Origin: Phycisphaerae bacterium
GTDB lineage: Bacteria; Planctomycetota; Phycisphaerae; UBA1845
Direction of reading: 5' to 3'
DNA length: 64,000 bases
Assembly: GCA_963666835.2 (NCBI GenBank)
Contig: CAXXGO010000001.1
Span: 2,080,001-2,144,000, forward strand
Part shown: one piece after another, positions 1 through 17,592 of the stretch
Position numbering within the stretch: position 1 is the first letter of the stretch
Layout of the letters: each line of letters starts with the position of its first letter
The notes under the pieces: model-generated
Seen by the model: only the letters and a program-made list of their open reading frames with translations
The model's database searches: none
Told to the model about the DNA's origin: nothing
Program-made: the position numbers and the translations under genes

Positions 1-184
1 CCCACGATTTCCATACTGACCTATGGGCTCTTTGCCATCGCGGCAACTTTCCTTTATGACTGAGGTATAAGAATGACGAAGCATTAGTTGGGCAGGCGAG
101 TAGCTCTCGCCGTAGTCGTGAGCTGGTGGAGTAACGCTCTTTCCTCCACTAGCTTGCGACTGCTCGACATAGAAGGAGCGAATA

Positions 185-1204: not shown

Positions 1205-1342
1205 AATTTCATGAACTTTCACGCACACAATCCAGCCCCCAAAACGGCCATAACGACCCCGTAAAGGCCGTTCACATCTAACAACTCGTGAACACCGGGA
1301 TAGGTGAAAGCAATGTCGCTTTCCTAAACCTGGAGATTCACG
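1200..1342. promoter_or_regulatory. Operator-like array of GTGAA/TTCAC half-sites
   Basis: Near-perfect 24-bp palindrome CGTGAAATTTCATGAACTTTCACG (1200-1223), inverted pair GTTCAC..GTGAAC (1270-1293), further half-sites at 1304 and 1337. Confidence 0.5.
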
Positions 1343-1684
1343 ATGCAGAACGACGCAACGGACACACCGCCCCGGCTACTGACCACGGGGGAGATCGCCA
1401 AGCGGCTCGGCCAACGGGTTGACCGTATCGCCCGCATTCTGAGGACGAGACCACACATTCAGCCATCGGCAATGGCTGGCAACTCTCGGCTGTACGATCA
1501 TGAGTCCTACATCCTGATCTGCCGCGAGATCGCAACCATCGACGCACGGAAGACCGAGCGGAAGAGATTCATCGACAAGCTGTGCAAGGCGGCAACTGGC
1601 CCCGACCGAGCCTCTCGGCGGTTGTATTCAGACAGTGATGTGGAATTGAAGAAGCGGATGGGGCAGGAAGGCGGTGCCTCGTGA
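1343..1684 (+). CDS. MerR/excisionase-like HTH protein
   Basis: LTTGEIAKRLGQRVDRIARIL...AGNSRLYD winged-HTH pattern; RBS GGAG. Confidence 0.7.
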   Translation: MQNDATDTPPRLLTTGEIAKRLGQRVDRIARILRTRPHIQPSAMAGNSRLYDHESYILICREIATIDARKTERKRFIDKLCKAATGPDRASRRLYSDSDVELKKRMGQEGGAS

Positions 1685-1914
1685 AAGATCCATCCACACT
1701 CACCAGAAAAGAGATGACGGCGGCGCGGAAGGCTATACGTGAGCAGTGCCAATTGCTGAACGAAGCGGTCCTTAACGCGATGCATTGGCACGCTATGCGG
1801 CCATGTGTTGTAAGAAGGTACCTGAAGTATCTGACGGCAATTGAAGAGGAGTTCGTACGGGCTAAACCCCGAAAGGGCCCGAGGCGGAAAGGCGGCGCGG
1901 TCAATGAAGGATAA
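1681..1914 (+). CDS. Small hypothetical protein
   Basis: GTGA start/stop coupling to the upstream gene; overlaps the start of the next gene. Confidence 0.5.
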   Translation: MKDPSTLTRKEMTAARKAIREQCQLLNEAVLNAMHWHAMRPCVVRRYLKYLTAIEEEFVRAKPRKGPRRKGGAVNEG

Positions 1915-2383
1915 ACCCGTCATCATGATCGACCAGCGCGAGAAACTCCCGTGGAAGTTCGATAGCCCGACCGAATCTGCGTTGTTGCAGACCGCCGACT
2001 ACTCGATTCGGGGATTAGAACACCGGATCGCGATTGAGCGGAAGAGCCTTGACGACCTGCTCGGGTGTGTGGGCAGGAACCGCGAGAGGTTCACCCGTGA
2101 GCTCGAACGCCTCCAAGGTATTCAATGCCGATGCGTGGTGGTCGAGTCTAGTCTTGAGGATATCCGAGCAGGCTCATGGCGCCCGCAGATTACGCCAGCC
2201 CAGACCGTGGGCAGTATCGCTAGCTGGATGGCCAAGTTCAATGTCTGCTTCTTTCTCGCCGGCAACCGCGACTTAGCCGCAAGGTTCGCTGAGAGGTTTT
2301 TGGTCAACGCTGCCCGGACGTTGGCTTCCGAGTACGAGGCGGCTGTCGAGTTCCTCGAGGTGGCAGGAGGGCGAGATGGGTAG
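1904..2383 (+). CDS. ERCC4/XPF-family nuclease domain protein
   Basis: IDQRE, ADY and IERKSLDDL (ERKxxxD) motifs. Start moved to ATG 1904. Confidence 0.85.
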   Translation: MKDKPVIMIDQREKLPWKFDSPTESALLQTADYSIRGLEHRIAIERKSLDDLLGCVGRNRERFTRELERLQGIQCRCVVVESSLEDIRAGSWRPQITPAQTVGSIASWMAKFNVCFFLAGNRDLAARFAERFLVNAARTLASEYEAAVEFLEVAGGRDG

Positions 2384-4838
2384 TAATCAATGGCGAGAAG
2401 TCACCAAGGCTGAACCCTGCCCGATCTGCTCTCACGGCGATTGGTGCGCATTCTCGACAGACGGTTCTGCCTGCCGATGTATGCGACTGGATGCGCCATC
2501 GGCCGGATGGAAGTTCCTTCGGACTGATTCTGACGGGGGTAGTACCTTTCGGCGTACCGACGCAACCCCGACTCCGGCACCCGCGAAGCCAGACAAGCCC
2601 CGCAAGCGGCACGAGACCTTTGAGGGCGCGGTCAAAGCACTAGCTTGGAACGTTGAACGCTGTCAGAAGGAAGCCGGAAAGCGTATCGGTGCGGAGTTCG
2701 TCGCGTACTACCCATACGAGCGTCTCGACGAATCCGACAACGCAGTCGAAGTGAACCGGGAAGTCAGGTTCCTCGATCCCTCTGGCAAGAAGGAAATGAG
2801 ATGGTGTCATCAGGGCTCTGACAATCGTTGGGTGACCAAACGCGGAGATCATCGCGGCATCTTCGGGCTCGGTAATGTGCTCGCAGCACCTTCGGACACC
2901 CCGATCCTGATCGTCGAGGGCGCCAAGGTTGCTGTCCTCGCCAAGGATCTCGACCTGCTTGCGGTCACGTCTGGAGGATGCACTTCGGCTAAGCTGGTCG
3001 ACTGGTCCCCCCTCAGTGGTCGTGACGTAGTTGTCCTGCCCGATGCCGGTGAAGACGGAGCGAAGTACGCGGATGCCATACAAAGGGCACTCGCGAAGCT
3101 GAACTCTCCACCATCGGTCAAGGTTATTCGCCTGCCCGGGTTGGAGGACAGCGAGGACCTAGAAGAGTACATCGCAAACCAGCGTACCGCAGGTCTATCC
3201 GACGATGCCATCAGAGAGAAGATCGTGACGATGATTGAAGATGCCCCCAAAGCGGAACCACCAGCACCGGAGCCGGAACCGAAGAAGAAGCGTGCCGGTC
3301 CACCCATTGATGAGCAACTACTTAAGATGGTGCTTGATCGTTATGACATCCGACGTTCGATGGATGATAAGACCTTCGCCACATTGAAAGACGGCAAATC
3401 GTGCATCGTGCAGATGGTCAACACCGATCGTCGTGGGATATGCGGGGTCATGCGCAGAATGTATACCGATCGCCACGAGTATGCCAATCTGGATCAGTCG
3501 GTATTGAACAAGGTTGTTGCCACATTGGATTCACGGGGCGACGATCTAGATCGAGAGACAATCCATCTTCGTGTTGCCGATTATGGTGAGAACACATCGT
3601 ACTATGATCCGGGCTGGCGTTCGGGGCAGGCTATACAAATCGGCCCTGACGGTTGGGATGTTGTAGAGCGTCCTCCCGTATGGTTTCGACGAGCCCAGCT
3701 AACGTATCCAATGCCTGAGCCTGTGCGCGGTGGAGATCTTGATCGCCTACGTGAGCTTATCAACGTGCAGACCGATGCAGAATGGACGATGCTATTGGGA
3801 TGGTTAGTTGCATGTACGTTCGAGGTTATTGACCACCCTATTTGCTTTCTTGGCGGTCGTGCCGCCTCTGGTAAATCAACTGTAATGCACTTGATCACGA
3901 GCGCGATCGATTACCTGGGCGACGAGGATCTTGCGCCTCCAGAAGACCCACGAAGCTGGGCTGCTCTCGCCGACAATAGCTGGGTGATGCAGGCTGACAA
4001 CATATCGCATATCGATGCCGCATGGAGCAATACGTTGTGCAGCGGGGTGACTGGAGCAAGGAAACCCGACCGAGAGTTGTATACGAATACGGGGCTAGTC
4101 GTCATCGGTATGCGACGATGCATCATCCTAACGAGCATTGATGTAGGCAAGGTGCGCAGCGACTTGGCCTCCCGCCTCATGAAGATCAATCTCAAGCGAA
4201 TCGATAAGCCTCGTAAACCGAGGGTGCTGCGCGAGGCATTCAAGAGCGCTCACGGGGAGATCTTCGGCGGATTGCTCGACTTGAGCGCAAAGGTGCGAGG
4301 ACGATTGCCAAACATAACGGATACGGGATCGTTTCGTTGTGTGGACTACGCGTACATTCTCAAGGCTATTGACCAGGAACTCGGTACAACCGGGTTTGAT
4401 GCGTATGCAGCCATGCAAGCAGATTGCACACGTGCGGTGGTTGAGGATGATGTGGTGGGTGAGATGGTGGTGAAACTCGTGAGAGAGAATGGCGGGCGCT
4501 GGAGCGGGAAGATGAGAGATCTTTTTCAGATGCTGGATGGTCGCGCCGGAACGCCGAAGACACCTGCAACGCTGGGTAAGGCGATAAACCACATGGAGAA
4601 TTCGTTGGAGGCTATGGGGATTAGGTTTAAGAGTCGGCCGACTAATGATGCAAGGGTGTGGACGTTCTATGAGTTCGCATCGGATGTGGCCTCCGGAGAC
4701 GATCCCAACGTGCGGAAGTTCGCACCTGCGCCCAGCACAGACGAAGACCCATTCCCTCTGAATCCACCACCACCATCCCCGATGGAAGCGGAGGAAGTAT
4801 ATGTAGACGAGCACGGTGAGGAGTGTGGGACCATATGA
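2376..4838 (+). CDS. Primase-helicase (Zn-binding + TOPRIM + P-loop NTPase)
   Basis: CPICSHGDWC Zn finger, TOPRIM IVEG...PDAGEDG, Walker A GRAASGKST and downstream ADN motif. Confidence 0.85.
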   Translation: MGSNQWREVTKAEPCPICSHGDWCAFSTDGSACRCMRLDAPSAGWKFLRTDSDGGSTFRRTDATPTPAPAKPDKPRKRHETFEGAVKALAWNVERCQKEAGKRIGAEFVAYYPYERLDESDNAVEVNREVRFLDPSGKKEMRWCHQGSDNRWVTKRGDHRGIFGLGNVLAAPSDTPILIVEGAKVAVLAKDLDLLAVTSGGCTSAKLVDWSPLSGRDVVVLPDAGEDGAKYADAIQRALAKLNSPPSVKVIRLPGLEDSEDLEEYIANQRTAGLSDDAIREKIVTMIEDAPKAEPPAPEPEPKKKRAGPPIDEQLLKMVLDRYDIRRSMDDKTFATLKDGKSCIVQMVNTDRRGICGVMRRMYTDRHEYANLDQSVLNKVVATLDSRGDDLDRETIHLRVADYGENTSYYDPGWRSGQAIQIGPDGWDVVERPPVWFRRAQLTYPMPEPVRGGDLDRLRELINVQTDAEWTMLLGWLVACTFEVIDHPICFLGGRAASGKSTVMHLITSAIDYLGDEDLAPPEDPRSWAALADNSWVMQADNISHIDAAWSNTLCSGVTGARKPDRELYTNTGLVVIGMRRCIILTSIDVGKVRSDLASRLMKINLKRIDKPRKPRVLREAFKSAHGEIFGGLLDLSAKVRGRLPNITDTGSFRCVDYAYILKAIDQELGTTGFDAYAAMQADCTRAVVEDDVVGEMVVKLVRENGGRWSGKMRDLFQMLDGRAGTPKTPATLGKAINHMENSLEAMGIRFKSRPTNDARVWTFYEFASDVASGDDPNVRKFAPAPSTDEDPFPLNPPPPSPMEAEEVYVDEHGEECGTI

Positions 4839-5206
4839 CAGCAACAACACGACAGACATGCATGGTACTCGCAGAGCTTCGTCAGAAGGACATCGAGCTA
4901 TTCATCGGGGATGGGGAATTGCGGTACGTTCCTCGACAGGCAATGACAACGGAACTCCACGCGAGACTACAGGCCCATCGAGATGCCATTTTAACGGCAT
5001 TGTCTGACCCGTGCGATACGGCCTTGGCGATAGTCGACGATGTACTTGAGCGTGAGGGTTTTGACGCTGCTCTCGATCTTGGCGAGCACTTCGAGGAACG
5101 CGCAGCCGTGCGGGAGTTCGAGGGCGATGTCTCGCGAGAGCGGGCCGAATGCGGGGCGTTGCTGGATACTTGCTATCGGCTGAATGGTAGGGGGGTGGCA
5201 GAATGA
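4835..5206 (+). CDS. Phage-type small protein (TubC-N-like domain + FEERAA motif)
   Basis: ATGA coupling with the primase stop; ELFIGDGELRY..ELHARLQAHRDAIL and FEERAAVREFEG segments. Confidence 0.6.
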   Translation: MTATTRQTCMVLAELRQKDIELFIGDGELRYVPRQAMTTELHARLQAHRDAILTALSDPCDTALAIVDDVLEREGFDAALDLGEHFEERAAVREFEGDVSRERAECGALLDTCYRLNGRGVAE

Positions 5207-5499
5207 GTGACGCGCCACTAACCGCGCAGCAGGTCGCCGAGTATCTTCAATGCTCCGTGCAGCACGTGCGCAAACTCTGCCAGTGTGGGGCGCTCAAGTG
5301 TTCCCGCCTGCCCTCGCCGATCTCCGGCAAGATTGGACCGAAGGCTGAGTACCGGATCAGACAATCGGCGGTTGAGGAGATGTTGGGCATTGAGCCTATC
5401 AGAAAGCCTCGACGAAAGACCCTTACTCCTGCTCAGCGACGCCGGGCGCGGTCGGAATTAGAGTTGGCAAAGTCTCTGCTGCGCGCTGGAGCTGGGTAG
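5203..5499 (+). CDS. Excisionase-like HTH protein
   Basis: LTAQQVAEYLQCSVQHVRKLC...YRIRQSAVEE; next to the integrase. Confidence 0.8.
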   Translation: MSDAPLTAQQVAEYLQCSVQHVRKLCQCGALKCSRLPSPISGKIGPKAEYRIRQSAVEEMLGIEPIRKPRRKTLTPAQRRRARSELELAKSLLRAGAG

Positions 5500-6430
5500 A
5501 CCGGACTTGGGCGTACACTTGGACCATCTTCAGGTCGACATGCCCGAGCAGTTTCGCCACCACCTCAATAGGCGTACCGGCCTCCAACCACGTTTGAGCT
5601 GCAGTATGCCTGAGCGTGTACACCCCGCGAATACCATGCCGAGAGAGCGATCGAGACAGCGATCTACGCTTCCACGGTCCTCCTCGGCAATTGTGAAAGA
5701 CAAGCTCGCCCGGTGAGTGTGGTTCGGGGATTGACTCTAGAACCTCCATCGCTTGGGGTGGCAAGTAGATCGTGCGCGGTCGTCTGGTCTTGGCTGCGGT
5801 CTTGTGCTGATCGAGTACGCAAACCCGTTTCTCCATCCGGACCTGCTCCCATGTCAAAGAGATTGCCTCACTGGGACGGCAGCCGGTCGTGAGAATGAAC
5901 GTGGCGACTCGTTTAATCGTCGGGTTCAGGGTTGACCATGCCTTGGCGATGTTCTCCGGGCTCTCGTCGCGTGGATGCAGGATCTCTTTACGATGAGGTG
6001 CAGAATCGGGTGGCTTATCAATCCAGCCCTGAGCCGCAGCCCAACGACAGACGACCCTCGCCGTAGATGTGTAACGGTTGATCGTGCTGGGCTTGAGGTC
6101 CCGCGTATCGAGGTAATCACCGTAGGCGTGAAGGACAAGCGGATCGTGGAGAATGTCGAAGGGCGCATCTGTTGCGAAGTCCTCAACCCATCGGCCAGCC
6201 GCCCGGGCTAAGTTGTGGTTGGGTTTGGCCTCCTGGCACCATCGCCGATAGAGTTCAGCAATCGAGCTAGGAGCGCCCGCACGTCGCCCCAGACCACCGA
6301 GAATCTCTCCGGCCCGCTTGTATGCGACGGCCATGTCGGTCCCGAGGTGATGATCCTTGCCGCCGACCCGTAACCTGAAGTACGGATTTCGCCCCTTCTT
6401 CCGGATGCACTGAACTGTCGGTTCTCGCAT
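5423..6430 (-). CDS. Tyrosine recombinase/integrase
   Basis: Catalytic motifs TGCRPSEA (R), K, YTLRH, LLGH and VY (Tyr); RBS GGGAGG. Confidence 0.93.
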   Translation of the reverse strand: MREPTVQCIRKKGRNPYFRLRVGGKDHHLGTDMAVAYKRAGEILGGLGRRAGAPSSIAELYRRWCQEAKPNHNLARAAGRWVEDFATDAPFDILHDPLVLHAYGDYLDTRDLKPSTINRYTSTARVVCRWAAAQGWIDKPPDSAPHRKEILHPRDESPENIAKAWSTLNPTIKRVATFILTTGCRPSEAISLTWEQVRMEKRVCVLDQHKTAAKTRRPRTIYLPPQAMEVLESIPEPHSPGELVFHNCRGGPWKRRSLSRSLSRHGIRGVYTLRHTAAQTWLEAGTPIEVVAKLLGHVDLKMVQVYAQVRSTQLQRAAETLPTLIPTAPGVAEQE

Positions 6431-6805
6431 AATTCGCCTCCCTGCTAGCGCCCCCTCGAACCCTTCTTACGGCATCTTAAACGCGGTTGCGATTAGGTCA
6501 AGAGGGGGCGCTCGAAACGAGCAAACCACTATAATATAGGCACGAAACGCAATCCGTACCCCTTCTTATCAAAAATGGCGACAAGATCCGCGTCAAGGTC
6601 GAAAACCGCGAATACCAGGGCAAAGAGCACTGACGCCGGCCCGTACTCCGATCGTCTGCCCGCTGCTTGTGTCCGGCTCAGGGTTCATCCGCGGTTACCG
6701 TTGCCCCAATCCAGCGCCTGCCTTTACCCGGCTCGCTTCATTTGCGCCCTCCGGCGTCCGATAGAAACAGGAGAGTAGGTACGTACCGAGGGTCTTCGAG
6801 GCGAA

Positions 6806-7123
6806 ATGTCCGTACACGGCGGCCAACAACAGGATTCCGGATTCGACAAGACCACCGATCCCGCAGGTGGAGGGGCAGGGGCTCTGCCCTCGCGCCGCGC
6901 GATAGTAACCGGCGGGGTGAAGTTGGCTTTCGTTGCTCCGGTTCTGTCGACCTTCTTCGCCAGTCAGGCTTACGCCGCTAATTACAGTTGCTATCCGCTC
7001 GGGCACACGTGTGACACGGTCAGCGAGGGGAAACGGCAGCAGTGTTGCGGCGCGCTTACGTGCAAGGGACCTGATACGATTCCGGTTGATCCGGGCGATG
7101 TCGACGGTACGTGCCAGCCGTAA
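6806..7123 (+). CDS. Twin-arginine, Cys-rich (knottin-like) putative RiPP precursor
   Basis: SRRAIV Tat-like motif, FVAPVL motif, AYA|A signal peptidase site, then C62-x6-C69-x10-C80C81-x4-C86-x16-C103. First gene of an RRE-containing operon. Confidence 0.75.
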   Translation: MSVHGGQQQDSGFDKTTDPAGGGAGALPSRRAIVTGGVKLAFVAPVLSTFFASQAYAANYSCYPLGHTCDTVSEGKRQQCCGALTCKGPDTIPVDPGDVDGTCQP

Positions 7124-7205
7124 GGTCCGGTTGAGATTCCGGCAGGCTCTTGGTTGGGCCTGGAATGGAGCTCGCCGGAGAGACTGGATCCAAGGAAGGG
7201 TTGCC

Positions 7206-8531
7206 ATGTCCTCGGCAGCATCAGGGCGGACGGCTACGTTGTTCATAATCGCTTGTGCGCTGGGCGGGGCAGGCGTGTCCGGGACGCTGCTCAAGGCGCA
7301 CGACGGCGGTTGGCAGATCGCCAGCCGGGACGGCGTCGGTCTTATTCAGTATTGCAACGCTCAGATTATTCCCAACGCCGATTGCCCGCAGGTCATGGGC
7401 AGCCGCTGGGGGTCCTTCGATGCCCGGATCGGCTCACACCGAGTGTTGGTTCCCACCTCACTGATCGGCTTGGCGTACTTCGTTGCCGTGGCCGTCTGGT
7501 TTGGGATGGTCAGTCCCGGTGGGGTCCGGGGCGGTTGGACCTGGCCGATTACAATCCTCGCAGTGGCGGCAGGGCTCGCCGGATCGTTGTTTCTCGTGGT
7601 CATCATGGCGGTGTCGGTGAGTCGATGGTGCCCCCTTTGCGTGGTCGCACATCTGTTGAACGGGGCGATTGTCATAGCGACTTTGTGGTTGTGGCGACGC
7701 ACCAGGCGTAGTCCCGATTGCAGCGTGCCGGTTGTTCCGGGGATGATTCGTCTTCGCCGCCGGCTGGCGTGGTCTGCCGCAACAGTGGCTCTGGGGGCGG
7801 CCGTGGGATTCTGGCTCTACTTCGATGCGGTGACTGAAGCCCGTCGACAATGGCGAAAGTACACTCATTTGAAGCAAGCGGTAACCGCCCTGCAGGACGA
7901 CCCGCAACTCACGCTTCGGGCGTTCTATGCTCAAGAGGTCGTCGAAGACCTATGGGACGATCGAAACGCTGATTCGGAATGGGGGGTGAGTACGCTCCGT
8001 CCGCGGCTTACGGTGTTCACGGACTACGATTGTGGCCCCTGCGCATGCTTCGAGAGTACCCGCGAGCGGGTGATCAGCGTGGCCTTTACGGACGGCGTGG
8101 ATCTCCAGGTACGCTACTGCCCTGAAACCACCGGGACGGGGCGGGCAGACGTGTCGACTTTGGCGGCGAGCTGCGCCGCGGAAGCGGCTCGGCGCCAAGG
8201 CGGATCGGACGCGCAGCTACGCATGCATCGGTTGCTGTTCATTCACCGCCAGGCTGGTCCGCAACGAGACTACGCCGACTTGGCCCGGCAGGCCGGCCTT
8301 GACGTTGACCGATTCCTGGAAGATTGGCAAAGCGAGCCGGTGCGGGAGGCGGTTCTGAGCGATATTGGTCTGGCGAACTCTCTGAAGGTCTCCGCCCCGG
8401 CCGTGTTCCTCGAAGGTCGGCGCGTGCCGGACTTGTGCGTTGAGAGCCCGACCTTCTGGGAGGCGGTTTCGGCTGAGCTGGCCAAGGAACGGGTCGCGGC
8501 CTCGTCCGAGATCGGGGAGGAGCTGCGATGA
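7206..8531 (+). CDS. VKOR-DsbA/thioredoxin fusion (disulfide formation)
   Basis: VKOR loop Cys pair (YCNAQ..DCPQVMGSRW), TM helices and WCPLC. DsbA-like FTDYDCGPC and cis-Pro loop VSAPAVFLEG. ATG 7206 with RBS AAGGAAGG. Confidence 0.88.
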   Translation: MSSAASGRTATLFIIACALGGAGVSGTLLKAHDGGWQIASRDGVGLIQYCNAQIIPNADCPQVMGSRWGSFDARIGSHRVLVPTSLIGLAYFVAVAVWFGMVSPGGVRGGWTWPITILAVAAGLAGSLFLVVIMAVSVSRWCPLCVVAHLLNGAIVIATLWLWRRTRRSPDCSVPVVPGMIRLRRRLAWSAATVALGAAVGFWLYFDAVTEARRQWRKYTHLKQAVTALQDDPQLTLRAFYAQEVVEDLWDDRNADSEWGVSTLRPRLTVFTDYDCGPCACFESTRERVISVAFTDGVDLQVRYCPETTGTGRADVSTLAASCAAEAARRQGGSDAQLRMHRLLFIHRQAGPQRDYADLARQAGLDVDRFLEDWQSEPVREAVLSDIGLANSLKVSAPAVFLEGRRVPDLCVESPTFWEAVSAELAKERVAASSEIGEELR

Positions 8532-8860
8532 CTGACGCGGTCAACGGCGATGGTGTGCGTCTTTCGCCGGCCGTCTGCTCCGAGTCCGGCAGTCAAGCGC
8601 GCCTCGTCCGGAGAACGGATGTCACCGTCTATGAGCTGGACGGAGAGGGGCTGGTCTTCGACGCCACCCGCGGTGACACGCATCGTCTGAACGCGACGGC
8701 TATGGCGATTTGGCGCGAATGTGACGGCCGGCAGGATGCAGCGCAGATTGCCGAACGCCTTACGGATTCTTATGACGTTTCTATGGCAGCGGCTGTTGAG
8801 CATGTGGAGAGGCTTCTTCGAGAGTTTCAGGAACGGCGGCTGGTTTACACGGCGTTTTGA
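8528..8860 (+). CDS. PqqD-family RiPP recognition element (RRE)
   Basis: ELDGEGLVFD..THRLNATAMAIWRECDG..IAERL..YDV..L+E..LV PqqD pattern; ATGA-coupled to VKOR. Confidence 0.92.
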   Translation: MTDAVNGDGVRLSPAVCSESGSQARLVRRTDVTVYELDGEGLVFDATRGDTHRLNATAMAIWRECDGRQDAAQIAERLTDSYDVSMAAAVEHVERLLREFQERRLVYTAF

Positions 8861-8872
8861 CACAGGGACCGG

Positions 8873-9781
8873 ATGCTTAGCATGGCCCGGGATGACAGGC
8901 AAGACGTGATGCACTTTCAGATCGGCGAGGTAGCGATGTCGCTGCGGACGCCGCTCCGGTCGTTACGCAGTCAGTATCTTGCTCTGTATGAAGACTTCCG
9001 GGTCCCGCAGCGGGCACGCAACTCCATTCGCATCGAGGTTCGCCCCTCGCAGCGGTCCTTACGCCATCGGCGGTGCTACCGGGTCTATGTGGACGGGCGA
9101 TTGCGGTTCGAGCCGACCCGGTTCAAGGAACTGCTGCCCTACGTGGAGTGGGCGGTCAACTGGGAGTTAGCCCGGGTCATGCCGCAGTTTCTGCAACTCC
9201 ACGCCTCCTCCATGGAGATTAACGGGCAGGGCGTGATTCTGCCGGGGGCGTCGGGTAGCGGAAAGTCCACCCTGACTACCGGACTGATTGCCGACGGATG
9301 GCGATATCTCTGTGATGAATTCGCGTTGATTCATTCGGGCACCCTGGAGCTTCACCCGTTTCCCCGGGCGATTTGTGTCAAGAAGCCGGCATTTTCCGTG
9401 ATGGAGTCCCTCGGGTTTCACCTGCAGAAAGCCCGGCATTACCACAAGGGGACCAAGGGCGATGTAGTTTTTCTGAATCCGTTGAATCTGCGGCCCAATG
9501 GGATCGGACGCACCTGCCCGGTACGATATGTCGTCTTTCCGCGCTACGCCGCTGGAGCGGAACCGGCGCTGGTGCCCATCAGCCGGGCGGAGGCGGCCCT
9601 CGACATGCACCACGTCTGCTTCAACCTCTTCGGGTGCCGGACGCTCGGCGTGGAGGTTCTGGCGAAGCTGGTACGGGGGGCTTCCTGTTATCGACTTATC
9701 AGTGGAGAGATTGGCAAGACCTGTCGTTTGCTCCGCGGAATGGTCGAACAGGCGGCCCAACCGCAGGCTCTAAGCGCGTAA
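8873..9781 (+). CDS. HPr-kinase-related P-loop kinase (lasso-peptide kinase / HprK-related type)
   Basis: LHAS...ILPGASGSGKSTLT...GWRYLCDE...PFPR motifs. Confidence 0.88.
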   Translation: MLSMARDDRQDVMHFQIGEVAMSLRTPLRSLRSQYLALYEDFRVPQRARNSIRIEVRPSQRSLRHRRCYRVYVDGRLRFEPTRFKELLPYVEWAVNWELARVMPQFLQLHASSMEINGQGVILPGASGSGKSTLTTGLIADGWRYLCDEFALIHSGTLELHPFPRAICVKKPAFSVMESLGFHLQKARHYHKGTKGDVVFLNPLNLRPNGIGRTCPVRYVVFPRYAAGAEPALVPISRAEAALDMHHVCFNLFGCRTLGVEVLAKLVRGASCYRLISGEIGKTCRLLRGMVEQAAQPQALSA

Positions 9782-9816
9782 GGTCGCGATCGAGGGGAGA
9801 CGCCCTTGGCGGAGCG

Positions 9817-10995
9817 ATGGAGGACTTGATGGACCATAGTGGAATCCAACTTGCCCCCTGGTTGAACGCTGCCGGTCCGCCGCGTGCCGCTGTCGAGTGG
9901 ATGGAACCAGTCGAAGTGGCCTGCGAATCCGGGCTTGCCGGGTTGCTCTTGGAACACGTTTCGCGACACGGGCTCGAACCTCCGGCAGATGCCGCCGAGA
10001 CCCTGCGCCGCGCGGCTGCGTCAGTCGCGCAAAACAACATCCACCTGCACGACGAGCTGGCTGACGTGGTTCAGGCTTTCAACCGGGCGAAGGTCCCCGT
10101 GATGCTCCTCAAAGGGGCAGCCCTCAATCATACGATCTACCCCCGATATAACCTCCGTCCGATGAGCGATCTCGACTTGCTCGTCCACCCGGATTCGGCG
10201 GAAGAGGCCGTGCAGTTGCTTGCCGATCACGGTTGTCCGCGCGGATTCGATCTCGTCCGCGACGATTTCTTCCCGAAATACCACAACGAGGTCGAGTTGC
10301 TGACGGGCTCGCCCAATCCCGCCCGGATCGATCTGCACGCGCGACCGCTACGCCCACTACGAATCTCGCAGACAATGCCGGACGACGCTCTGTGGGAAGA
10401 CGCTCAACCGGTTCATATCGGAGACGGTAAGGCGTGGATCCCCCGTCCGGAGTTAAACTGCCTCCACTTGGCGGCCCACGCGGCTTATCATGGCTGTTCC
10501 CGGTTGATCTGGCTATATGATCTTCTCAGGCTTCACGAAGCGTACGGCAGTGTCATGGATTGGGGTCTGTTGGTCGATCGGGCTCGGGAATGGAAGCTGT
10601 CGTGGCCGGTCCTTTTCGCCCTGCGTCGCGCGGGCGAGCTCCTCGGCGAAGTCTGTCCGCCAGGGGTAATCGAGAAGCTGGAGGGACATCCGATCGGCTG
10701 GCGCGACCGGTTGGCTCTAGTTCACGCTCCACGGGACGCCGCCGCCCCGATCTCTCATCTCGTAGTAGATCTGCTCTGTACGCCCGGGATTCGCTTCCGG
10801 ATAGGGTACGCCTCGTCCTTTGTGCTGCCCGGAGGTAAGCATCTGGCCGGGATCTACCCCTTCCGGCACCGGGGATGGAAGGCGGTTGCGCACCTCTGGC
10901 GGTGTCTTCGAGCCGCAGGCCGGGCTGTGGCGGGGCTGGCGAGCGCGCCGGCCGCTCTGCTGCGTCGAGGCAGCTTCCGGTTGGCGTCTCCGTAA
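9817..10995 (+). CDS. Nucleotidyltransferase family protein (NTP_transf_5-like)
   Basis: LLKGAAL...RPMSDLDLLV, IDLH, HAAYH..RLIWLYDL. Start at ATG 9817 or 9829. Confidence 0.88.
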   Translation: MEDLMDHSGIQLAPWLNAAGPPRAAVEWMEPVEVACESGLAGLLLEHVSRHGLEPPADAAETLRRAAASVAQNNIHLHDELADVVQAFNRAKVPVMLLKGAALNHTIYPRYNLRPMSDLDLLVHPDSAEEAVQLLADHGCPRGFDLVRDDFFPKYHNEVELLTGSPNPARIDLHARPLRPLRISQTMPDDALWEDAQPVHIGDGKAWIPRPELNCLHLAAHAAYHGCSRLIWLYDLLRLHEAYGSVMDWGLLVDRAREWKLSWPVLFALRRAGELLGEVCPPGVIEKLEGHPIGWRDRLALVHAPRDAAAPISHLVVDLLCTPGIRFRIGYASSFVLPGGKHLAGIYPFRHRGWKAVAHLWRCLRAAGRAVAGLASAPAALLRRGSFRLASP

Positions 10996-11132
10996 CCACC
11001 CAGCCCGATAATCACCTGGATTGGACCGCACAAGCCGCCGATATCAGCGGCAGTTGGTGCCGTGTACGGATCACCGTACCCGGACCGACCTGACCCGGGA
11101 TTCAGGCTCTGTCGGACTGTGGCGGAACAGCG

Positions 11133-12140
11133 ATGACGCGTTGGCATCAACACACGGTGGCCGTCGTGATGACCGTGAAGAACGATCCCGCGGGTTGTGC
11201 CGTGACCCTTGGTTCGCTGGTAACCCAGACACGCCGCCCGGACGAGATAATCGTAGTAGACGGCGGGTCGACCGACGATACCGTGCGTTTGGTTCGGCAG
11301 TACCAGGGCAGCCTGCCACAATTGCGGGTTATTGACGCTCCCGGGGCCAACATCGCTCGCGGGCGAAACATCGGGGTCGAGGCGGCAGAGTCAGAGATTG
11401 TGGCCACGACCGATTGCGGATGTCGGGCGGATTCGAAGTGGCTGGAGGAGTTGCTGCGACCTTTCCAGGAGGATCCCGGCACGGAATTCGTGGCGGGTTT
11501 CTATCGAATCGAAGCCCACAGCCTTCTGGAAGAGGTTGTGGGGTTGGCGACGATGCGCGGGCAGTTGGACCCGGTCGACCCGGACAAGTTCAACCCGTCG
11601 GCTCGGTCGATGGCGCTGACCAAAGCGTTGTGGACCAGGGCGGGGGGCTGGCCGGAGTGGATCTCGTTTTCCGAAGACACCCTCCTGGATCACAAGATAA
11701 GGCAGATGGACGTCGGGTGGGCTTTCGCCGGAGATGCGGTGGTACGCTGGCGTCCGCGCCGGTCGCTTCCGGCAATTGCCCGCCAGTTTCATAATTACGG
11801 CACCGGGCGGGGGCACACGCAGATTGATGCCGCGGGCTATCTTTACGACGTTCGGAACGGCCTGCTCTTTGCGGGGACGGCGGTTGCCAGCCTGTGGACG
11901 GTGTGGGCGCTGCCGCTTCTTGTCGCGATTTTTGGCTATTTCTATGTTTGGGCGTTTCACCACAAGGCGATGCGTGTGGCCCGCCGGGCCGGACGCTGGC
12001 CGGCATACCCGCTTTGCCTCTGCGTTATGTGGGTGATCATTGCGGTGAACATCACCGGGTTCCTGGCGGGTTCCTGGCAGAGGCAACGGGATCAGGGTCG
12101 ATACCGGCGTCGGCTCGAGGCATACCTGGCCGGCCCCTGA
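11133..12140 (+). CDS. Glycosyltransferase family 2
   Basis: VVDGGSTDDT, ARGRNIG, TDCG (DxD-like position), SED and C-terminal TM helices. Confidence 0.9.
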   Translation: MTRWHQHTVAVVMTVKNDPAGCAVTLGSLVTQTRRPDEIIVVDGGSTDDTVRLVRQYQGSLPQLRVIDAPGANIARGRNIGVEAAESEIVATTDCGCRADSKWLEELLRPFQEDPGTEFVAGFYRIEAHSLLEEVVGLATMRGQLDPVDPDKFNPSARSMALTKALWTRAGGWPEWISFSEDTLLDHKIRQMDVGWAFAGDAVVRWRPRRSLPAIARQFHNYGTGRGHTQIDAAGYLYDVRNGLLFAGTAVASLWTVWALPLLVAIFGYFYVWAFHHKAMRVARRAGRWPAYPLCLCVMWVIIAVNITGFLAGSWQRQRDQGRYRRRLEAYLAGP

Positions 12141-12305
12141 GACTCCGTCCCCGCTTACCAAGGGAGGATCGAGGGGCGTCGATTCGGGAGCTGCAGAGTT
12201 TTCCGGGGTTTTCAACAAGAACGCCCGTAGTGACTTAGAAAAGTGCCCGACGCCGACAATGGAGCGGCCTATCCAGTGAATCGAAACCAGCCAACCCGCT
12301 CCACG

Positions 12306-13745
12306 ATGAGGCGACGCTGGCTGTGTGTCGCCTACGCTTTCCCTCCGATCAATCGAAGCGGAACGCACCGCACCTTGGGCTTCGTGAGGCACCTGGATTC
12401 GCTTGGGTGGGACGCCACCGTGCTAACCGTGGATCCAGGGGATGAGCCGGTTGATGCTGGTCTCCTTGACCGGGTCCCCGAGTCGACCGAGGTCATTCAA
12501 TCGCTGTGGACGGACCTTATCGCCCAGGCAAAACGGATGTTGTGCCTCGGGCGTTCTCAAGAGAGAGCGAGTGATTTTCCCCGCGACGCCGCGCGTTACG
12601 ACCAAACCGTCATCAGCGGAACCGCCCGCGATGGAAAGCCGGGCGGGGTGAAGGAGTGGGTGTCCCGTTTGTTGATTACTCCGGATTCCCGGCTTGGTTG
12701 GCTCGGTCCGGCAACACGCCGGGGTATGGCCGCAATTCGCCGACGGCGCCCCGAGGTGATCTACTCGACCTCACCGTATATGACGGCTCATCTGATCGCG
12801 GCGCGACTTGCCCGCCGAACGGGCGTCCCCTGGGTTGCGGATTTTCGAGATCCGTGGTGCGACAACCCGTTCCGCAGTCTAGGCTTCACGAGTCTTCGGC
12901 GATGGGATGAATGGTTGGAGCGTCGGACCCTTCGCCGCGCCGCTCATGTAGTATGCACGACCTCGACCATGCGGGATCGATTTGCGGAGCGACTGCCGTT
13001 CGTGCGCGAAAAGTCCAGCGTCATCACCAACGGGTTCGACGCAGAGCTGTTGACCGGCCTTACGCCGACACGCGTTGCGCCGGTGGAAGATCTGGTCCTG
13101 ACCCACTGTGGACAGTTCTACGGGCCGCGTCGCCCGCAGGTGTGGTTCGATGCCCTAAGACGGGTGCTGGACCAACCTTCGGATCGACCGCGGAGAATCC
13201 ACTTGCAGTTGCTCGGACCGGATTCGTACGAGGGCCGGCCGCTGATGGAACTGGCCGCGGACGCGGGAGTCGCCGAGCATGTTCACGTGTCGGGCTCCAA
13301 GAGCCATCGGGAGGCTCTATCGCACATGGCCGGCAGTGACGTGTTGCTGCTGGCCGGATCGTCGGGCGTCGGTAGCGATCTGCAGGTGCCCAACAAACTG
13401 TTCGAGTACCTTGCCGTGCGCCGGCCGATTATCGCCGCGGTTTCCGCAAACAGCCCGGTCGTTGGGATCCTCCGCGAAGCCGGGGCGGAGGCGTCTGTCT
13501 GCGATCCGGAAGATGCACTCGGTATTGCCGAAGCGATCGAGAACCTCTCCGAATCGCATAGTCCGGACCCCGCGCAAGCATGGGATGGCGTTTCCCGGTT
13601 CGACCGCGCCAATCGAGCGCGCGAGCTGGCTGCGATCTTTCAGCACGTATCCCAGTCGAAGATCCTCGGACGGACATCGCGGATTGCCGCCGCCGACCAC
13701 AAGTGCCAAGGCGTAGACACCGCCCGCGGCTACGCCCACGGATAG
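12306..13745 (+). CDS. Glycosyltransferase family 4
   Basis: AYAFPP..SG..R, WVADFRDPW, ITNGFD and PNKLFEYL motifs. Alternative GTG start at 12243. Confidence 0.9.
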   Translation: MRRRWLCVAYAFPPINRSGTHRTLGFVRHLDSLGWDATVLTVDPGDEPVDAGLLDRVPESTEVIQSLWTDLIAQAKRMLCLGRSQERASDFPRDAARYDQTVISGTARDGKPGGVKEWVSRLLITPDSRLGWLGPATRRGMAAIRRRRPEVIYSTSPYMTAHLIAARLARRTGVPWVADFRDPWCDNPFRSLGFTSLRRWDEWLERRTLRRAAHVVCTTSTMRDRFAERLPFVREKSSVITNGFDAELLTGLTPTRVAPVEDLVLTHCGQFYGPRRPQVWFDALRRVLDQPSDRPRRIHLQLLGPDSYEGRPLMELAADAGVAEHVHVSGSKSHREALSHMAGSDVLLLAGSSGVGSDLQVPNKLFEYLAVRRPIIAAVSANSPVVGILREAGAEASVCDPEDALGIAEAIENLSESHSPDPAQAWDGVSRFDRANRARELAAIFQHVSQSKILGRTSRIAAADHKCQGVDTARGYAHG

Positions 13746-13796: not shown

Positions 13797-15131
13797 TTAT
13801 CCGCGTATCACCCAGCGAAGCATCTGGGCGAAGTTCGCCCCTTTACCCTGCATCAGAATCCCGACCCGGAAGATCCGGCCGGCGGCGAAGACGCAGACGA
13901 TTGTGGTTAGTAGGACCAGCACGATTCCCACGACCGGCTGCCACAGCGGGACCCCGGGCGGCACCGCCTGCCGGATGGTCATCAGCATGGGCGTGGCGGG
14001 CGGAATCAGCGACAGAATAACCGACAGCGGGGCGGTCGGCTCGCGTACGACGAAGATCCAGCAGAACAACGGCATGGCCACGACGATCATCACCGGCATC
14101 AGAGCGCTCTGAGATTCCTTCATGTCCGAGACCGCCGCGCCGATTGCTACGAAAACGGAGCCGAACATCAGCACCGCCAGAGCAAGGAACGTGACGAACC
14201 AGATCACCAAGTGCGAGGGGAAGTACTCCTCGAAGCCGGCGTGTCGGATTGCGAAGTACGCCCCGAACAGGTAAATGACCGCGAGCGTCAGCGATACTCC
14301 GACCATACCGATCAGCTTGCCCATCATGAGCTGGAACGGCGGGATCGATCCAAGGAGGACTTCGGCGATCCGCTGCATCTTCTCTTCGAGCACGCTGTGA
14401 ACCAGTGGGGTGGCGCCAATGTTGATGATCATGAACATCAGCATCATCATACCCATGGGTATGAATATGTTGGCCAGCTCGTTAGTCTCGGTCGCCTTGG
14501 TGATGTTCCCCTCCTTGTCGACCGACACCAGGCCGAGGTTGGCAATCGACATCCACTTCGTAGCTTTCTTGACCACTTCCTGGTCGAGCCCGGCCTTGGC
14601 GAAGCGGAGTTCCTTGATCCGATTGTTGATGGGAAAGCCTACCCAACGCTGAAAATCGTCACTGGTGGGACTGTTTGAATGGTAATCAATCGACTGACGC
14701 GAGTCACCGTCTTTCGGGGTAATTACGTCGGGCTCTATAATGACGAACGCGAATAGTTCGCCGTCGCGGACCCGATTAGACAGATTCAGCTTAACCCGCT
14801 CCGGGTCGTCCGCGGTGGGGGCGATTCGTTCTATGACGAAGCGGGGCATGACTTGCTTACGCTTTCCGTTCTTCGTTTCGTAGATCCCCTGGTCTTTGAT
14901 ATCCTGCTCGTTGCGCTCGTTGGACGCCTCGACAATCGCGTCGAACAGCTCTCCAGTGTGGTCCACGATGGCTACATGCCGGTCGGAGATGTCGCGTTTG
15001 TCCTCCAGAATGGTCTGGGCAATCAGTACGCCGCACATCAGAATGGGCATGGCGATCATGCTAATGACAAAGGCCTTCGTTCTGACAGCGGCTTGATACT
15101 CGCGGACGGCGACGACGATCATCTTACGCAT
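13797..15131 (-). CDS. ABC-2 type transporter permease (NatB/YhaP-like)
   Basis: REY..VRTKAF, VLEEKMQRIAEVLLGS, MMGKLIG; multiple TM helices. Confidence 0.9.
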   Translation of the reverse strand: MRKMIVVAVREYQAAVRTKAFVISMIAMPILMCGVLIAQTILEDKRDISDRHVAIVDHTGELFDAIVEASNERNEQDIKDQGIYETKNGKRKQVMPRFVIERIAPTADDPERVKLNLSNRVRDGELFAFVIIEPDVITPKDGDSRQSIDYHSNSPTSDDFQRWVGFPINNRIKELRFAKAGLDQEVVKKATKWMSIANLGLVSVDKEGNITKATETNELANIFIPMGMMMLMFMIINIGATPLVHSVLEEKMQRIAEVLLGSIPPFQLMMGKLIGMVGVSLTLAVIYLFGAYFAIRHAGFEEYFPSHLVIWFVTFLALAVLMFGSVFVAIGAAVSDMKESQSALMPVMIVVAMPLFCWIFVVREPTAPLSVILSLIPPATPMLMTIRQAVPPGVPLWQPVVGIVLVLLTTIVCVFAAGRIFRVGILMQGKGANFAQMLRWVIRG

Positions 15132-16068
15132 GGCTGGCCTCCTGAGCTTGGGACGCGGTGGCGGCCGTGTCTGCCTCCGGGCCGGCTATCCTGACGAAGA
15201 TGTCGTGAAGCGACGGTTTGGCAAGCTCGAAGTGAGCCACCCGCCCCCGCGCCATCAGAGCGGCGAGGGTCTGTTGCGAATCGGTGTCCGGAGCCATCCG
15301 CAGTTCCTGGAGATGGCCGAAGTCCGTTACCTTCTCAACTCCTTCGATTCCACGCGGGTCGAATCCTCCGTTCTCCACCTTCACTCTGATCGTATCCTGT
15401 CCGTATGAGTCCTGGATCGAAGCGAGCGTGCCGTCGAGCACCTTGTTGCCCTTGAAGATCATGAAGATGAAGTCGCACATCTTCTCGGCCACGGCCATGT
15501 CATGGGTCGAGAAGATCACCGTGGCGCCGCGCTGCCGCAAAGCGAGGACCTCCTCCCGCAGGACATCGGTATTCACGGGGTCAAGCCCGGTGAACGGCTC
15601 GTCCAGGATCACGAGTCTCGGATCGGCGATGACCGAGGAGATGAACTGGACCTTCTGAGCCATGCCCTTCGACAGGGTCTCTATCTTGCGGTTTGCCCAG
15701 TCGGCCAAATCCAGCCGATCGAGCCAGTGCTTGACGGCGGCGTTGAAGTCACGCCGCCCTTTAAGTTCGGCGTAGAACCGCAGGAGGTCCCACACTTTCA
15801 TCTTTTTGTAAAGGCCCCGCTCTTCCGGCAGGTAGCCGATTTCGTCGTTAGCGGCCGTCAGACTCTCCTCGCCCAACACGCGAATCCGCCCGGTTCCCGC
15901 ATCGGGCCGGTAGATCCGCATGATCATCCGCAGAGTAGTCGTTTTGCCCGATCCGTTGGGCCCGATGAATCCGTAGATTGCGCCTTCGGGTACGGAGAGC
16001 GAGAGGTTGTTTACTGCGATGTGCTCACCGAACGTCTTGGTGGCGTTTTCAATCTCGACAATGTTCAT
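15124..16068 (-). CDS. ABC transporter ATP-binding protein
   Basis: GPNGSGKTT, LSKGMAQK, ILDEP, STH and C-terminal PSLHDIF. Confidence 0.95.
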   Translation of the reverse strand: MNIVEIENATKTFGEHIAVNNLSLSVPEGAIYGFIGPNGSGKTTTLRMIMRIYRPDAGTGRIRVLGEESLTAANDEIGYLPEERGLYKKMKVWDLLRFYAELKGRRDFNAAVKHWLDRLDLADWANRKIETLSKGMAQKVQFISSVIADPRLVILDEPFTGLDPVNTDVLREEVLALRQRGATVIFSTHDMAVAEKMCDFIFMIFKGNKVLDGTLASIQDSYGQDTIRVKVENGGFDPRGIEGVEKVTDFGHLQELRMAPDTDSQQTLAALMARGRVAHFELAKPSLHDIFVRIAGPEADTAATASQAQEASHA

Positions 16069-16929: not shown

Positions 16930-17592
16930 ATGAGCGAGCAGAACCTACGTATTCACACCGTGAACGACCCGGTGTACGCCGAAAACGGGATGGTGATATA
17001 CCTCCGTGGGAGCGGACCTTGCTGGATTATCGATCCCGGTCTTCCACCGCAAGCGGAGCTAATGGTAAAATACGTCCGTGAGGAGAAGCTCGAGGCTCAG
17101 GCGATCCTGCTGACTCACGGGCACGCGGACCATCTTGCCGGGGTGGATGAGGTCCGCGCCGCCCTCGGCCCCGTTCCTGTCTACCTCGCCAAAGAGGAAT
17201 GGGCGGCGCTTCAGGACCCGATGGTGAACCTCTCCGGGCTTATGGGGCAGGGCATAACGCTGAGCGTAACAGACCAGATGGACCTCGTGCCCGGCGAGAC
17301 GCTGCTACTGGACGGCTTGACCTGGCAGATTATCGACACGTCCGGTCATTCGCCGGGCGGACGGAGTTTCTACTGCGCCGAGGTCGGGACTGTGATCGTC
17401 GGGGATGCTCTTTTCGCCGGTAGCGTCGGCCGCGTGGACTTTCCCGGGAGCAGCGGTAGCCGATTGATCGGAAACCTCCGCGAGAGACTCATGAGCTTGC
17501 CCGATGAGACTCGCGTCATCCCGGGGCACGGCCCCGAGACGACCATCGGACATGAACGCGCCACGAACCCCTACCTCTTGCGCGGGATCTGA
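16930..17592 (+). CDS. MBL-fold metallohydrolase (glyoxalase II-like)
   Basis: THGHADH, GHSPG, GDALF..SVGRVD and PGHG motifs. Confidence 0.92.
   Translation: MSEQNLRIHTVNDPVYAENGMVIYLRGSGPCWIIDPGLPPQAELMVKYVREEKLEAQAILLTHGHADHLAGVDEVRAALGPVPVYLAKEEWAALQDPMVNLSGLMGQGITLSVTDQMDLVPGETLLLDGLTWQIIDTSGHSPGGRSFYCAEVGTVIVGDALFAGSVGRVDFPGSSGSRLIGNLRERLMSLPDETRVIPGHGPETTIGHERATNPYLLRGI

Follow-up and report, generated by a model that had tools for sequence, protein, structure and literature searches.

The window analysed here is a 64,000-nucleotide stretch of a Phycisphaerae genome, and all coordinates are positions within it. ORF and domain searches placed seven cassette ORFs at 6806..13745, all on the + strand, in the order and with the domain content proposed in the initial annotation. 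The precursor gene (6806..7123) encodes 105 aa made up of a variable N-region, a twin-arginine leader and a 48-residue core with six Cys. Within the leader lie the twin-arginine motif S29-V34 (6890..6907), a predicted RRE-binding motif, F42-x-x-P45-x-L47 (6929..6946), situated inside the hydrophobic region, and A55-x-A57 (6968..6976), the predicted signal peptidase I site. The predicted mature core, A58-P105 (6977..7120), contains Cys 62, 69, 80, 81, 86 and 103 as well as the candidate acceptor S61 (6986-6988), and has a computed monoisotopic mass of 4999.17 Da when reduced. It is followed by a cassette-type VKOR-DsbA fusion (7206..8531; PF07884 54 bits, DSBA/Trx 29.9), whose stop is overlapped as ATGA by the start of a discrete RRE of the PqqD family (8528..8860; PF05402 53.3, TIGR04353 43.1 bits with a cut-off of 35). 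Next are an HprK-related kinase (8873..9781), which matches TIGR04352 over its full length at 189.3 bits, under the cut-off of 200, and a PF14907 nucleotidyltransferase-fold enzyme (9817..10995, start probably 9829; 181.3). Two accessory glycosyltransferases, GT2 (11133..12140) and GT4 (12243..13745), complete the cassette; their orthologues occur only in loci with Cys cores. In the mechanical ORF list VKOR begins earlier, at 6933 (TTG), inside the precursor gene; we rejected this start in favour of ATG 7206, which agrees better with the Pfam match and has a Shine-Dalgarno sequence.

Domain searches detected no lasso cyclase or B2 gene in the locus, in agreement with the initial annotation. 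The five PF00733 matches in the genome all lie far from the locus, and the best PF13471 score in the genome scan was 21.6 (cut-off 26). Promoter and terminator scans of the locus returned chance-level matches only. We rejected the idea that the cassette is cargo of an adjacent phage-like element: the element stops at a 65-bp repeat (6566-6630), which recurs at the 3' end of an efp paralogue, and leaves the cassette outside. The ABC genes at the locus are a convergent ABC-2 pair on the opposite strand that is not conserved across loci.

Conservation of the precursor and its linkage to the kinase

The precursor gene is more than a chance ORF. Eighteen of 20 candidates were homologues, and RR, F..P and the six Cys were invariant in their alignment, although the invariance of RR and Pro is partly circular because both served as anchors when the family set was assembled. 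Across 24 precursor copies, codon-position identity over a 30-residue leader block was 0.56/0.66/0.38. A leader model scored true matches at 28 bits or more and reversed decoys at 10.9 or less. Four search matches resembling repeats or unrelated Cys-rich proteins (P0074, P0093, P0109, P0111) were left out. The precursor itself matched no Pfam or NCBIfam model, and 76 relatives yielded just the RRE domains of fusions and weak matches, one of them to NF047792 (16.4, cut-off 80). A search of the ESM Atlas (best 0.93, hypothetical clusters) is used as a lead only.

Of 101 genomes of the source's Phycisphaerae family, 90 contained a core resembling the HPr-rel-A system (RRE, HprK-like kinase, PF14907); among the good genomes, 55 of 58 had the kinase, mostly as a single copy. 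The conserved precursor accompanied the kinase in 95 of 117 distinct loci, and these 95 also held the RRE (91) and the nucleotidyltransferase (83). Moreover, precursor and kinase were fused in nine loci, one of which has no internal start in the 45 codons ahead of RR; precursor-RRE fusions occur in further loci, and VKOR-RRE fusions also exist. Synteny and fusions support the view of the small gene as a conserved precursor tied to the RRE, kinase and nucleotidyltransferase. One could instead regard the locus as two unrelated neighbouring modules, one for an exported knot peptide and the oxidase serving it, the other a kinase/nucleotidyltransferase/glycosyltransferase set with a different target, since 22 of the 117 kinase loci showed no precursor in the available DNA and genome G056 carries a VKOR-GT2-GT4 block apart from its kinase locus. 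The fusions speak against this reading, as do the occurrence of the same leader beside the kinase with either Cys or Cys-free cores, the presence of a precursor elsewhere in five of those 22 genomes, and the precedent of the linear polyphosphorylated peptides discussed below; we consider it very improbable.

By core type, the 95 precursor loci divided into 56 Cys-rich and 39 Cys-free, with a Cys-free example in record CP087563 (L128). The Cys-free loci have no Cys core, VKOR-DsbA, GT2 or GT4, and none of the 33 whose flanks were long enough to judge had a GT2 or GT4 orthologue. Because 39 of 95 loci do without all of these parts, and 20 of the 56 Cys loci have no nearby VKOR, the Cys core, VKOR and both glycosyltransferases are accessory parts of the cassette.

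The putative modifying enzymes

The RRE is the sole PF05402 match in the genome, and its nearest solved structures are TfuB1, TbiB1 and 9X8Z. The leader positions predicted to bind it are Y/F in 89 of 98 precursors (Y in 57, F in 32; Phe in the studied copy) and V/I/L in 97. A model of the RRE-leader complex scored 0.55 (best control 0.01), with a partner pLDDT of 57 and 87% contact agreement. Of 157 solved pairs, 116 attained the mark for such models, as did two of 215 mismatched pairs. However, at 0.60 or below it was reached by just 18 solved pairs together with both mismatches and, since few solved pairs score so low and like complexes have already been solved, the model lends weak support to binding of the leader motif. 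The kinase, single-copy in this genome, is intact (His110, Walker A, Asp148-Glu149); the TIGR04352 cut-off is passed in 3 of the 101 family genomes. The PF14907 enzyme has an invariant KG..R...DxD and a Pol-beta-type fold (pLDDT 95.6) and no sequence match in the PDB. Its model most resembled MenT1 (Z 14.7, rmsd 2.9 over 181), followed by ANT(2'') (12.2), LnuA (10.2) and FKRP (7.9), a comparison that cannot separate nucleotide from sugar transfer.

Comparison with known systems

The locus had been proposed as a new RiPP class for which no characterised system was known. The closest characterised system is that of the linear polyphosphorylated peptides (LPP), lppA-K-B-S-D-N of Paenibacillus alginolyticus (Popov et al. 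2026, PMC13381572), which has the same cyclase-free set of discrete RRE, HprK-like kinase and uncharacterised NTP transferase. Its LppA leader places Y, P and V at -16, -13 and -11; F42, P45 and L47 lie at exactly these positions from the predicted cleavage site, so that both leaders share [Y/F]xxPx[V/L] 16 residues ahead of cleavage. Both also have variable cores, a Ser close to the start of the core and processing by a signal peptidase (predicted here). Given this precedent and the identical register, the cassette is better described as a variant of LPP-like chemistry than as a new class. Features confined to LPP are an HQxIxFET part of the leader, a dedicated SipW-type peptidase, an MsbA-like exporter and a linear product; our locus contained no SipW-like peptidase or MsbA-like exporter, and TIGR02228 gave 0 matches in the 92% complete genome. 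Conversely, the RR signal, AxA, six-Cys core, VKOR-DsbA and two glycosyltransferases set the planctomycete cassette apart. LPP are described as restricted to Bacillota, and the text of that paper makes no mention of Tat, twin-arginine, disulfide or planctomycete (PMC13381572).

The RRE (above the TIGR04353 cut-off), a kinase nearest to TIGR04352 and the adjacent nucleotidyltransferase also recall the HPr-rel-A system, from which the studied kinase differs in falling under the model's cut-off; the two models include no substrate, VKOR or Cys peptide. We know of no role assigned to this system, and our literature search found no functional paper on the kinase/RRE/nucleotidyltransferase cassette and none on its combination with a knot peptide, though the supplements of the LPP and RRE-survey papers could list such clusters. 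Paeninodin- and pseudomycoidin-type lasso clusters share the kinase-nucleotidyltransferase tailoring pair. Unlike the phosphorylated or glycosylated lasso peptides, the cassette lacks a cyclase and B2 peptidase and the studied core has no C-terminal Ser; the C-terminal Ser of 33 of 39 Cys-free relatives does recall the pseudomycoidin site. In bufferins (PMC11626156), a Cys-rich precursor with a general export signal is modified in the cytoplasm with an RRE-like partner, exported by Sec and disulfide-bonded, and the cluster encodes a membrane oxidoreductase, DoxX, which proved dispensable. Bufferins differ in that the Sec signal is dispensable for modification, the chemistry is of the MNIO type on Cys, and there is no kinase.

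All 59 Cys precursors and 38 of 39 Cys-free ones have Ser within core positions +1 to +6. The Cys-free cores are mostly Ser-tailed stubs of 5-9 residues, too short for much beyond a Ser carrier, which raises an alternative in which an envelope phosphoglycan is built on the peptide, its primer, tethered to the membrane or lying in the periplasm. Ser would be primed by the kinase and nucleotidyltransferase and extended by the glycosyltransferases; the knot would be just a stable spacer, the leader might stay as an uncleaved anchor, and the product would be a glycoconjugate and not a free peptide. The near-universal kinase of the family, in contrast to the scattered occurrence of LPP (80 of 9173 Bacilli genomes), fits this proposal, and so do the location of LPP clusters in capsule loci (PMC13381572) and a ~190-aa RR-leader protein that replaces the precursor in proteobacterial loci. 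Yet a scan of 36 representatives, covering the 45 neighbour clusters that recur most, showed no polysaccharide export or polymerase family, the glycosyltransferases are absent from Cys-free loci, AxA is conserved, and five tandem, diverging precursors in genome G346 look like a diversifying product. We regard the primer as unlikely.

The putative export signal

In sequence the leader resembles a Tat signal that ends in AxA: S/T-R-R-x-hydrophobic-hydrophobic, an uncharged stretch and AxA are all present. By a TatFind-type rule, a Tat-type motif was found in 94 of 98 precursors, and together with the uncharged stretch in 75, versus 30 of 4455 ORFs of the genome. In addition, the leader model described above matched RR signals in two long proteins unrelated to the precursor. 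The motif has S/T in 82 of 98, with F or L at the consensus places in 47 and 51. Of the 98, 75 have Ala at -3 and 88 have it at -1, and the genome encodes both LepB and tatC. The Tat export claimed in the initial annotation has its basis in this motif. The Tat HMM TIGR01409, which placed seven other sites in the genome over its cut-off, did not match the studied leader; NCBIfam Tat models matched none of the 76 relatives; and in fusions RR sits 120-350 residues from the N-terminus (~330-350 in kinase fusions). These results, the Lys and Pro within the hydrophobic region, and the bufferin precedent would favour a leader acting as a docking tag for the RRE/kinase or as a Sec signal, with export via Sec or a transporter and with fused forms perhaps staying cytoplasmic. 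Against this stand RR flanks that follow the Tat consensus, a median hydropathy of 1.93, near that of the genome's eight strict Tat-motif proteins (1.68), the finding that LppA does not need RR to bind its RRE (PMC13381572), and a neighbouring ABC ATPase family that recurs in just 12 of 95 loci; a non-Tat leader appears improbable, a little more so than the phosphoglycan primer.

The predicted cystine-knot core and the VKOR-DsbA

The C-C-CC-C-C framework of inhibitor cystine knots was found in 52 of 59 Cys-rich precursor sequences and, with a spacing of 6-10-0-4-16, in the studied core. The proposed three-disulfide knot itself is something we infer from a core profile and a low-scoring model (pLDDT 72; no Foldseek match at E 0.001) that resemble knot peptides, a comparison that does not give disulfide connectivity. 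Tachystatin B was the best structural match (Z 4.5, rmsd 1.6, 39 aligned), with colipase close enough (Z 4.2) to count as a tie. Tachystatins and the spider, cone-snail and plant inhibitors share with the core C-C-CC-C-C and a small modelled beta-sheet, and tandem double forms occur on both sides; this likeness concerns Cys spacing and fold and implies neither ancestry nor toxin activity.

The VKOR domain has Cys 50, 60, 142 and 145, and the Trx domain CxxC at 276/279. The Trx domain also has an invariant third Cys, 281. Cassette VKOR-DsbA paralogues occurred in 36 of 56 Cys loci versus 0 of 39 Cys-free loci, and 26 unlinked copies, including the source genome's second one, formed a separate branch (support 100). 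These data support the view of a dedicated VKOR-DsbA, a paralogue of the cassette type that accompanies Cys cores exclusively. The Cys trait changes just ~3 times on the kinase tree, however, and a phylogenetically independent test of its association with VKOR, GT2 and GT4 comprised two pairs (p 0.5, not significant). In four genomes with VKOR-less Cys loci that were placed on the tree, the best match was solely of the housekeeping type, VKOR was absent from the loci of the nine kinase-precursor fusions, and among 34 cassette DsbA domains nine lack both CxxC Cys and two lack one.

Discussion

We lean slightly towards an LPP-like, leader-guided peptide modification with a general export route, yielding a disulfide-knotted product in the source lineage. 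The RRE would bind F42-x-x-P45-x-L47 and present the core to the kinase, for which the peptide is very probably the substrate, and the kinase would phosphorylate Ser near the core N-terminus, here probably S61. The PF14907 enzyme would then, somewhat more probably than otherwise, add a sugar or nucleotide to the Ser phosphate, as PsmN is needed for such decoration in pseudomycoidin. GT2 and GT4 may, at less than even odds, extend the phosphate-linked decoration; of all steps in the earlier interpretation, glycosyltransferase activity towards the peptide is the weakest. As the RRE site lies inside the hydrophobic region of the signal, the RRE would have to release the peptide before export, creating a checkpoint. 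Tat would be the likely exporter, LepB would cleave after A57, and the cassette VKOR-DsbA or its housekeeping paralogue would, with high probability, form three disulfides outside the cytoplasm; an inhibitor-cystine-knot fold is the product we would expect with nearly as much confidence. In favour of this pathway we count precursor linkage and fusions, the LppA register, core Ser, the Tat-type motif with TatC and LepB, the C-C-CC-C-C framework and knot-like model, the VKOR distribution and, weakly, the RRE-leader model. Against it, LppK rejected S3Y and S3T variants (PMC13381572), and in the studied core the residue at +3 is Tyr, with Ser following at +4; Ser is at +3 in just 34 of 59 Cys precursors. 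The inactivity of heterologously expressed LppN (PMC13381572) and of PsmN in vitro, the negative Tat HMM result, internal RR, Cys loci with no nearby VKOR, CxxC loss, the few changes of the Cys trait and low fold scores also weigh against it. Family-wide, single-copy inheritance makes an envelope or signalling role more likely than a weapon.

The composite reading, a Phycisphaerae cystine-knot peptide with a phospho-sugar on Ser, a leader that is both RRE dock and Tat signal, with the RRE holding back export until the modification is finished, and its own VKOR-DsbA paralogue with an unusual third Cys at the active site, is tentative as a whole, and we would sooner bet against all its parts holding together. 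If true, the HPr-rel-A cassette would find its explanation in a widespread system coupling phosphorylation to export, with this peptide as the Phycisphaerae branch. The locus supplies a candidate substrate, site and mass shift, which makes the function of the kinase/RRE/nucleotidyltransferase cassette directly testable, and it may offer a context in which a PF14907 enzyme works after the failures of LppN and PsmN. Should the fold hold, the family would provide dozens of natural variants of a knot peptide native to bacteria and equipped with a gene of its own for oxidative folding, of relevance to peptide scaffolds and to the question of how a single leader can work in modification as well as in export.

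Gene content and genomic setting of the cassette

The initial annotation had described seven co-oriented genes at window positions 6806-13745, and both the arrangement and the predicted domains were borne out: the precursor gene is followed by genes for a VKOR with a DsbA-like thioredoxin domain, a PqqD-type RRE, an HprK-like kinase, a PF14907 nucleotidyltransferase, a GT2 and a GT4. The RRE passed the cut-off of TIGR04353, and the kinase, with a score of 189.3, narrowly missed that of TIGR04352 (200); together these two models describe the HPr-rel-A system, to which, to our knowledge, no role has been assigned. Closest to the kinase were Phycisphaerae records, which probably places the window in that class. 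The kinase, RRE, nucleotidyltransferase and precursor each occur once in the source genome (92% complete). The nucleotidyltransferase retains an intact Pol-beta-type site; its predicted fold does not disclose its reaction.

We considered whether the cassette belongs to a phage-like element of about 16 kb (GC about 0.56), but that element fills window positions 1-6630 and the cassette lies beyond its end. It carries an ERCC4 nuclease (1841-2383), a primase-like gene (2376-4838) and an integrase (5423-6430), and its insertion site is the 3' end of an efp paralogue, not a tRNA gene; the element is bounded by a 65-bp repeat (window 6566-6630 and, in the efp paralogue, G000:C1:2070204-2070268 of the source genome; 95% identical). 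On the other side lie a convergent ABC-2 transporter pair (13797-16068) and a metallo-beta-lactamase-fold hydrolase (about 16930-17592), whose family was found again beside 15 Cys-type loci, probably through vertical synteny. A tRNA-SeC is predicted elsewhere in the genome (G000:C6:1320413-1320508).

The precursors form a conserved family

The precursor represents a genuine family. Eighteen of 20 candidates were homologues, a search at E 0.001 yielded 98 representatives, a few of them spurious, and the profile matched 59 of the 101 genomes of the Phycisphaerae family. The kinase was found in 90 of these 101 genomes (55 of the 58 good ones); across the rest of the class it turned up in just 5 of 288. 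We gathered 179 kinase loci, 135 of them distinct, and set aside 18 as distant, of which 16 were proteobacterial records and two were class-level outliers. Using a leader model that separated cleanly from reversed decoys, a precursor was detected at 95 of the remaining 117, a count that excludes two degenerate copies lacking the RR. At least five genomes of the other 22 loci carry a precursor elsewhere, and many of these loci stop at contig edges. The degenerate copies (L030:13764-14078 and L077:7542-7856) lie beside the VKOR and have lost most cysteines; both loci also hold an intact copy preceding the RRE.

At nine loci the precursor is joined to the C-terminus of the kinase, reflecting one or two events on the kinase tree; at others it is fused to the RRE, and at two the VKOR-DsbA and RRE share one frame. 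The strongest evidence for a joint function of these components comes from such fusions.

Several variant precursors were also observed. Precursors of a double-knot type, in which two six-Cys units stand in tandem, occur at L069, L076, L078, P0017 and P0018, one of them fused to a kinase, and genome G346 carries five tandem, diverging precursor genes (L067:8394-10995) far from its kinase locus. P0084 and P0092 contain two leader copies each and resemble Atlas clusters for which the few taxa on record belong to Thermomicrobiota. Among 12 matches in 401 other planctomycete genomes, three genomes have a related leader adjoining genes of the cassette. An RR-leader protein also lies just upstream at 10 of the 16 proteobacterial kinase loci; nine of these, from Alphaproteobacteria (L149-L152, L154, L156, L159, L161 and L166), encode proteins of about 190 residues some 0.9 kb upstream of the kinase.

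Leader anatomy and candidate phosphorylation site

Leader anatomy was counted over the 98 distinct precursors with the RR and Pro as anchors, so the invariance of both is partly built in. Ser or Thr precedes the RR in 82; after it come Tyr or Phe (89), the Pro and then Val, Ile or Leu (97), and the cleavage region has Ala at -3 in 75 and at -1 in 88. In the system of linear polyphosphorylated peptides (LPP; PMC13381572), the RRE contacts Y-16, P-13 and V-11 of the precursor LppA, which is cleaved after T-1 and phosphorylated on S3. F42, P45, L47 and A57 of the window precursor fall at exactly -16, -13, -11 and -1, the same register, and its core has Tyr at +3 and Ser at +4 where LppA has the phosphorylated Ser at position 3. 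All 59 Cys-rich precursors have a Ser within the first six core residues, as do 38 of the 39 Cys-free ones. Moreover, 33 of the 39 Cys-free cores end in Ser, which corresponds to the pseudomycoidin-type site, a C-terminal Ser (PMC11912497). The solved structures nearest the RRE profile were lasso B1 proteins and 9X8Z, a complex of the LPP RRE, LppB. A model of the RRE-leader complex scored 0.55 versus 0.01 for the best control, weakly supporting binding.

The six-Cys core and its probable export

A C-C-CC-C-C pattern of six cysteines is present in 52 of the 59 Cys-rich precursors, and most others are doubled. With E values up to 10 allowed, the core profile matched 54 PDB sequences, almost all of them named as knot peptides and three or four at E < 0.001; these matches are undoubtedly driven by cysteine spacing. 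The core model (pLDDT 72) aligned best with tachystatin B (Z 4.5, rmsd 1.6 over 39 residues), with colipase tied, and Foldseek returned no match for it at E 0.001. A cystine-knot fold is a likely prediction from modelling, one with no bearing on activity.

Scored by a TatFind-type rule, 75 of the 98 precursors passed, the window copy included, as did 30 of 4455 genome ORFs. The source genome encodes TatC and LepB, and SipW was not found in it (92% complete). With TIGR01409, seven other genome sites exceeded the cut-off but the window leader did not. Both this result and the internal position of the RR in precursor fusions count against Tat export; Rieske proteins of actinobacteria are known to have internal Tat signals. 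In the VKOR-DsbA, a basic loop lies ahead of the thioredoxin domain. This layout suggests, with the reservation that the fifth helix falls below the hydropathy threshold, an extracytoplasmic oxidase, which would imply, independently of the leader, that the substrate is exported.

VKOR-DsbA and glycosyltransferases accompany Cys-type loci

VKOR-DsbA was found at 36 of 56 Cys loci versus none of 39 Cys-free loci (31 of 49 versus none of 30 among loci with at least 4 kb upstream), and some match exists in 97 of the 101 family genomes. A tree was built from 44 cassette and 31 unlinked copies. Of the latter, 26 grouped on a separate branch (support 100) that includes the source genome's second copy; the remaining five came from genomes with Cys precursors. 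A third Cys two residues past the CxxC marks all 34 aligned cassette copies and none of the 26 housekeeping ones (window 8031-8048, residues 276-281). Nine of the 34 have lost both CxxC cysteines while retaining the third; the window copy has an intact CxxC. However, the kinase tree shows no more than three changes of the Cys trait, so the Cys-VKOR link lacks statistical independence (p 0.5). The proposal of a dedicated VKOR-DsbA held in part: the protein occurs beside Cys cores only, yet is absent at 20 of the 56 Cys loci. Cassette copies stand apart from the branch of 26 unlinked copies and carry the third Cys, and several near-complete Cys genomes have matches at housekeeping level only; the sequences indicate a specialised but dispensable paralogue, in which it resembles DoxX, dispensable in bufferin clusters (PMC11626156).

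Among loci with at least 4.5 kb downstream, a GT2 and/or GT4 orthologue was present at 21 of 43 Cys loci versus none of 33 Cys-free loci, and in genome G056 the VKOR, GT2 and GT4 have relocated together. The alternative raised initially, that the glycosyltransferases act only in polysaccharide synthesis, was partly countered, as they accompany Cys loci only and a scan of neighbours (36 of the top 45 clusters) gave no recurrent family for polysaccharide export. The evidence leans towards a tie to the Cys peptide, resting on the same few events as the Cys-VKOR link. A paralogous GT4-GT2 pair (30% and 34% identity) lies in a small glycosyltransferase cluster of the source genome (G000:C6:2230006-2236027).

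Relation to known systems

The cassette is real and conserved; we infer each of its chemical steps. Its combination of genes is undescribed in the papers searched, and the main text of two RRE surveys does not contain the word 'kinase'. The cassette would work like LPP, but the lack of SipW and MsbA places it outside LPP membership, and its kinase narrowly misses the TIGR04352 cut-off. The likeness to LPP weakens the suggestion of a new RiPP class. With this description the cassette's substrate becomes testable, and the family adds a probable knot peptide from bacteria, accompanied by an oxidase of its own.
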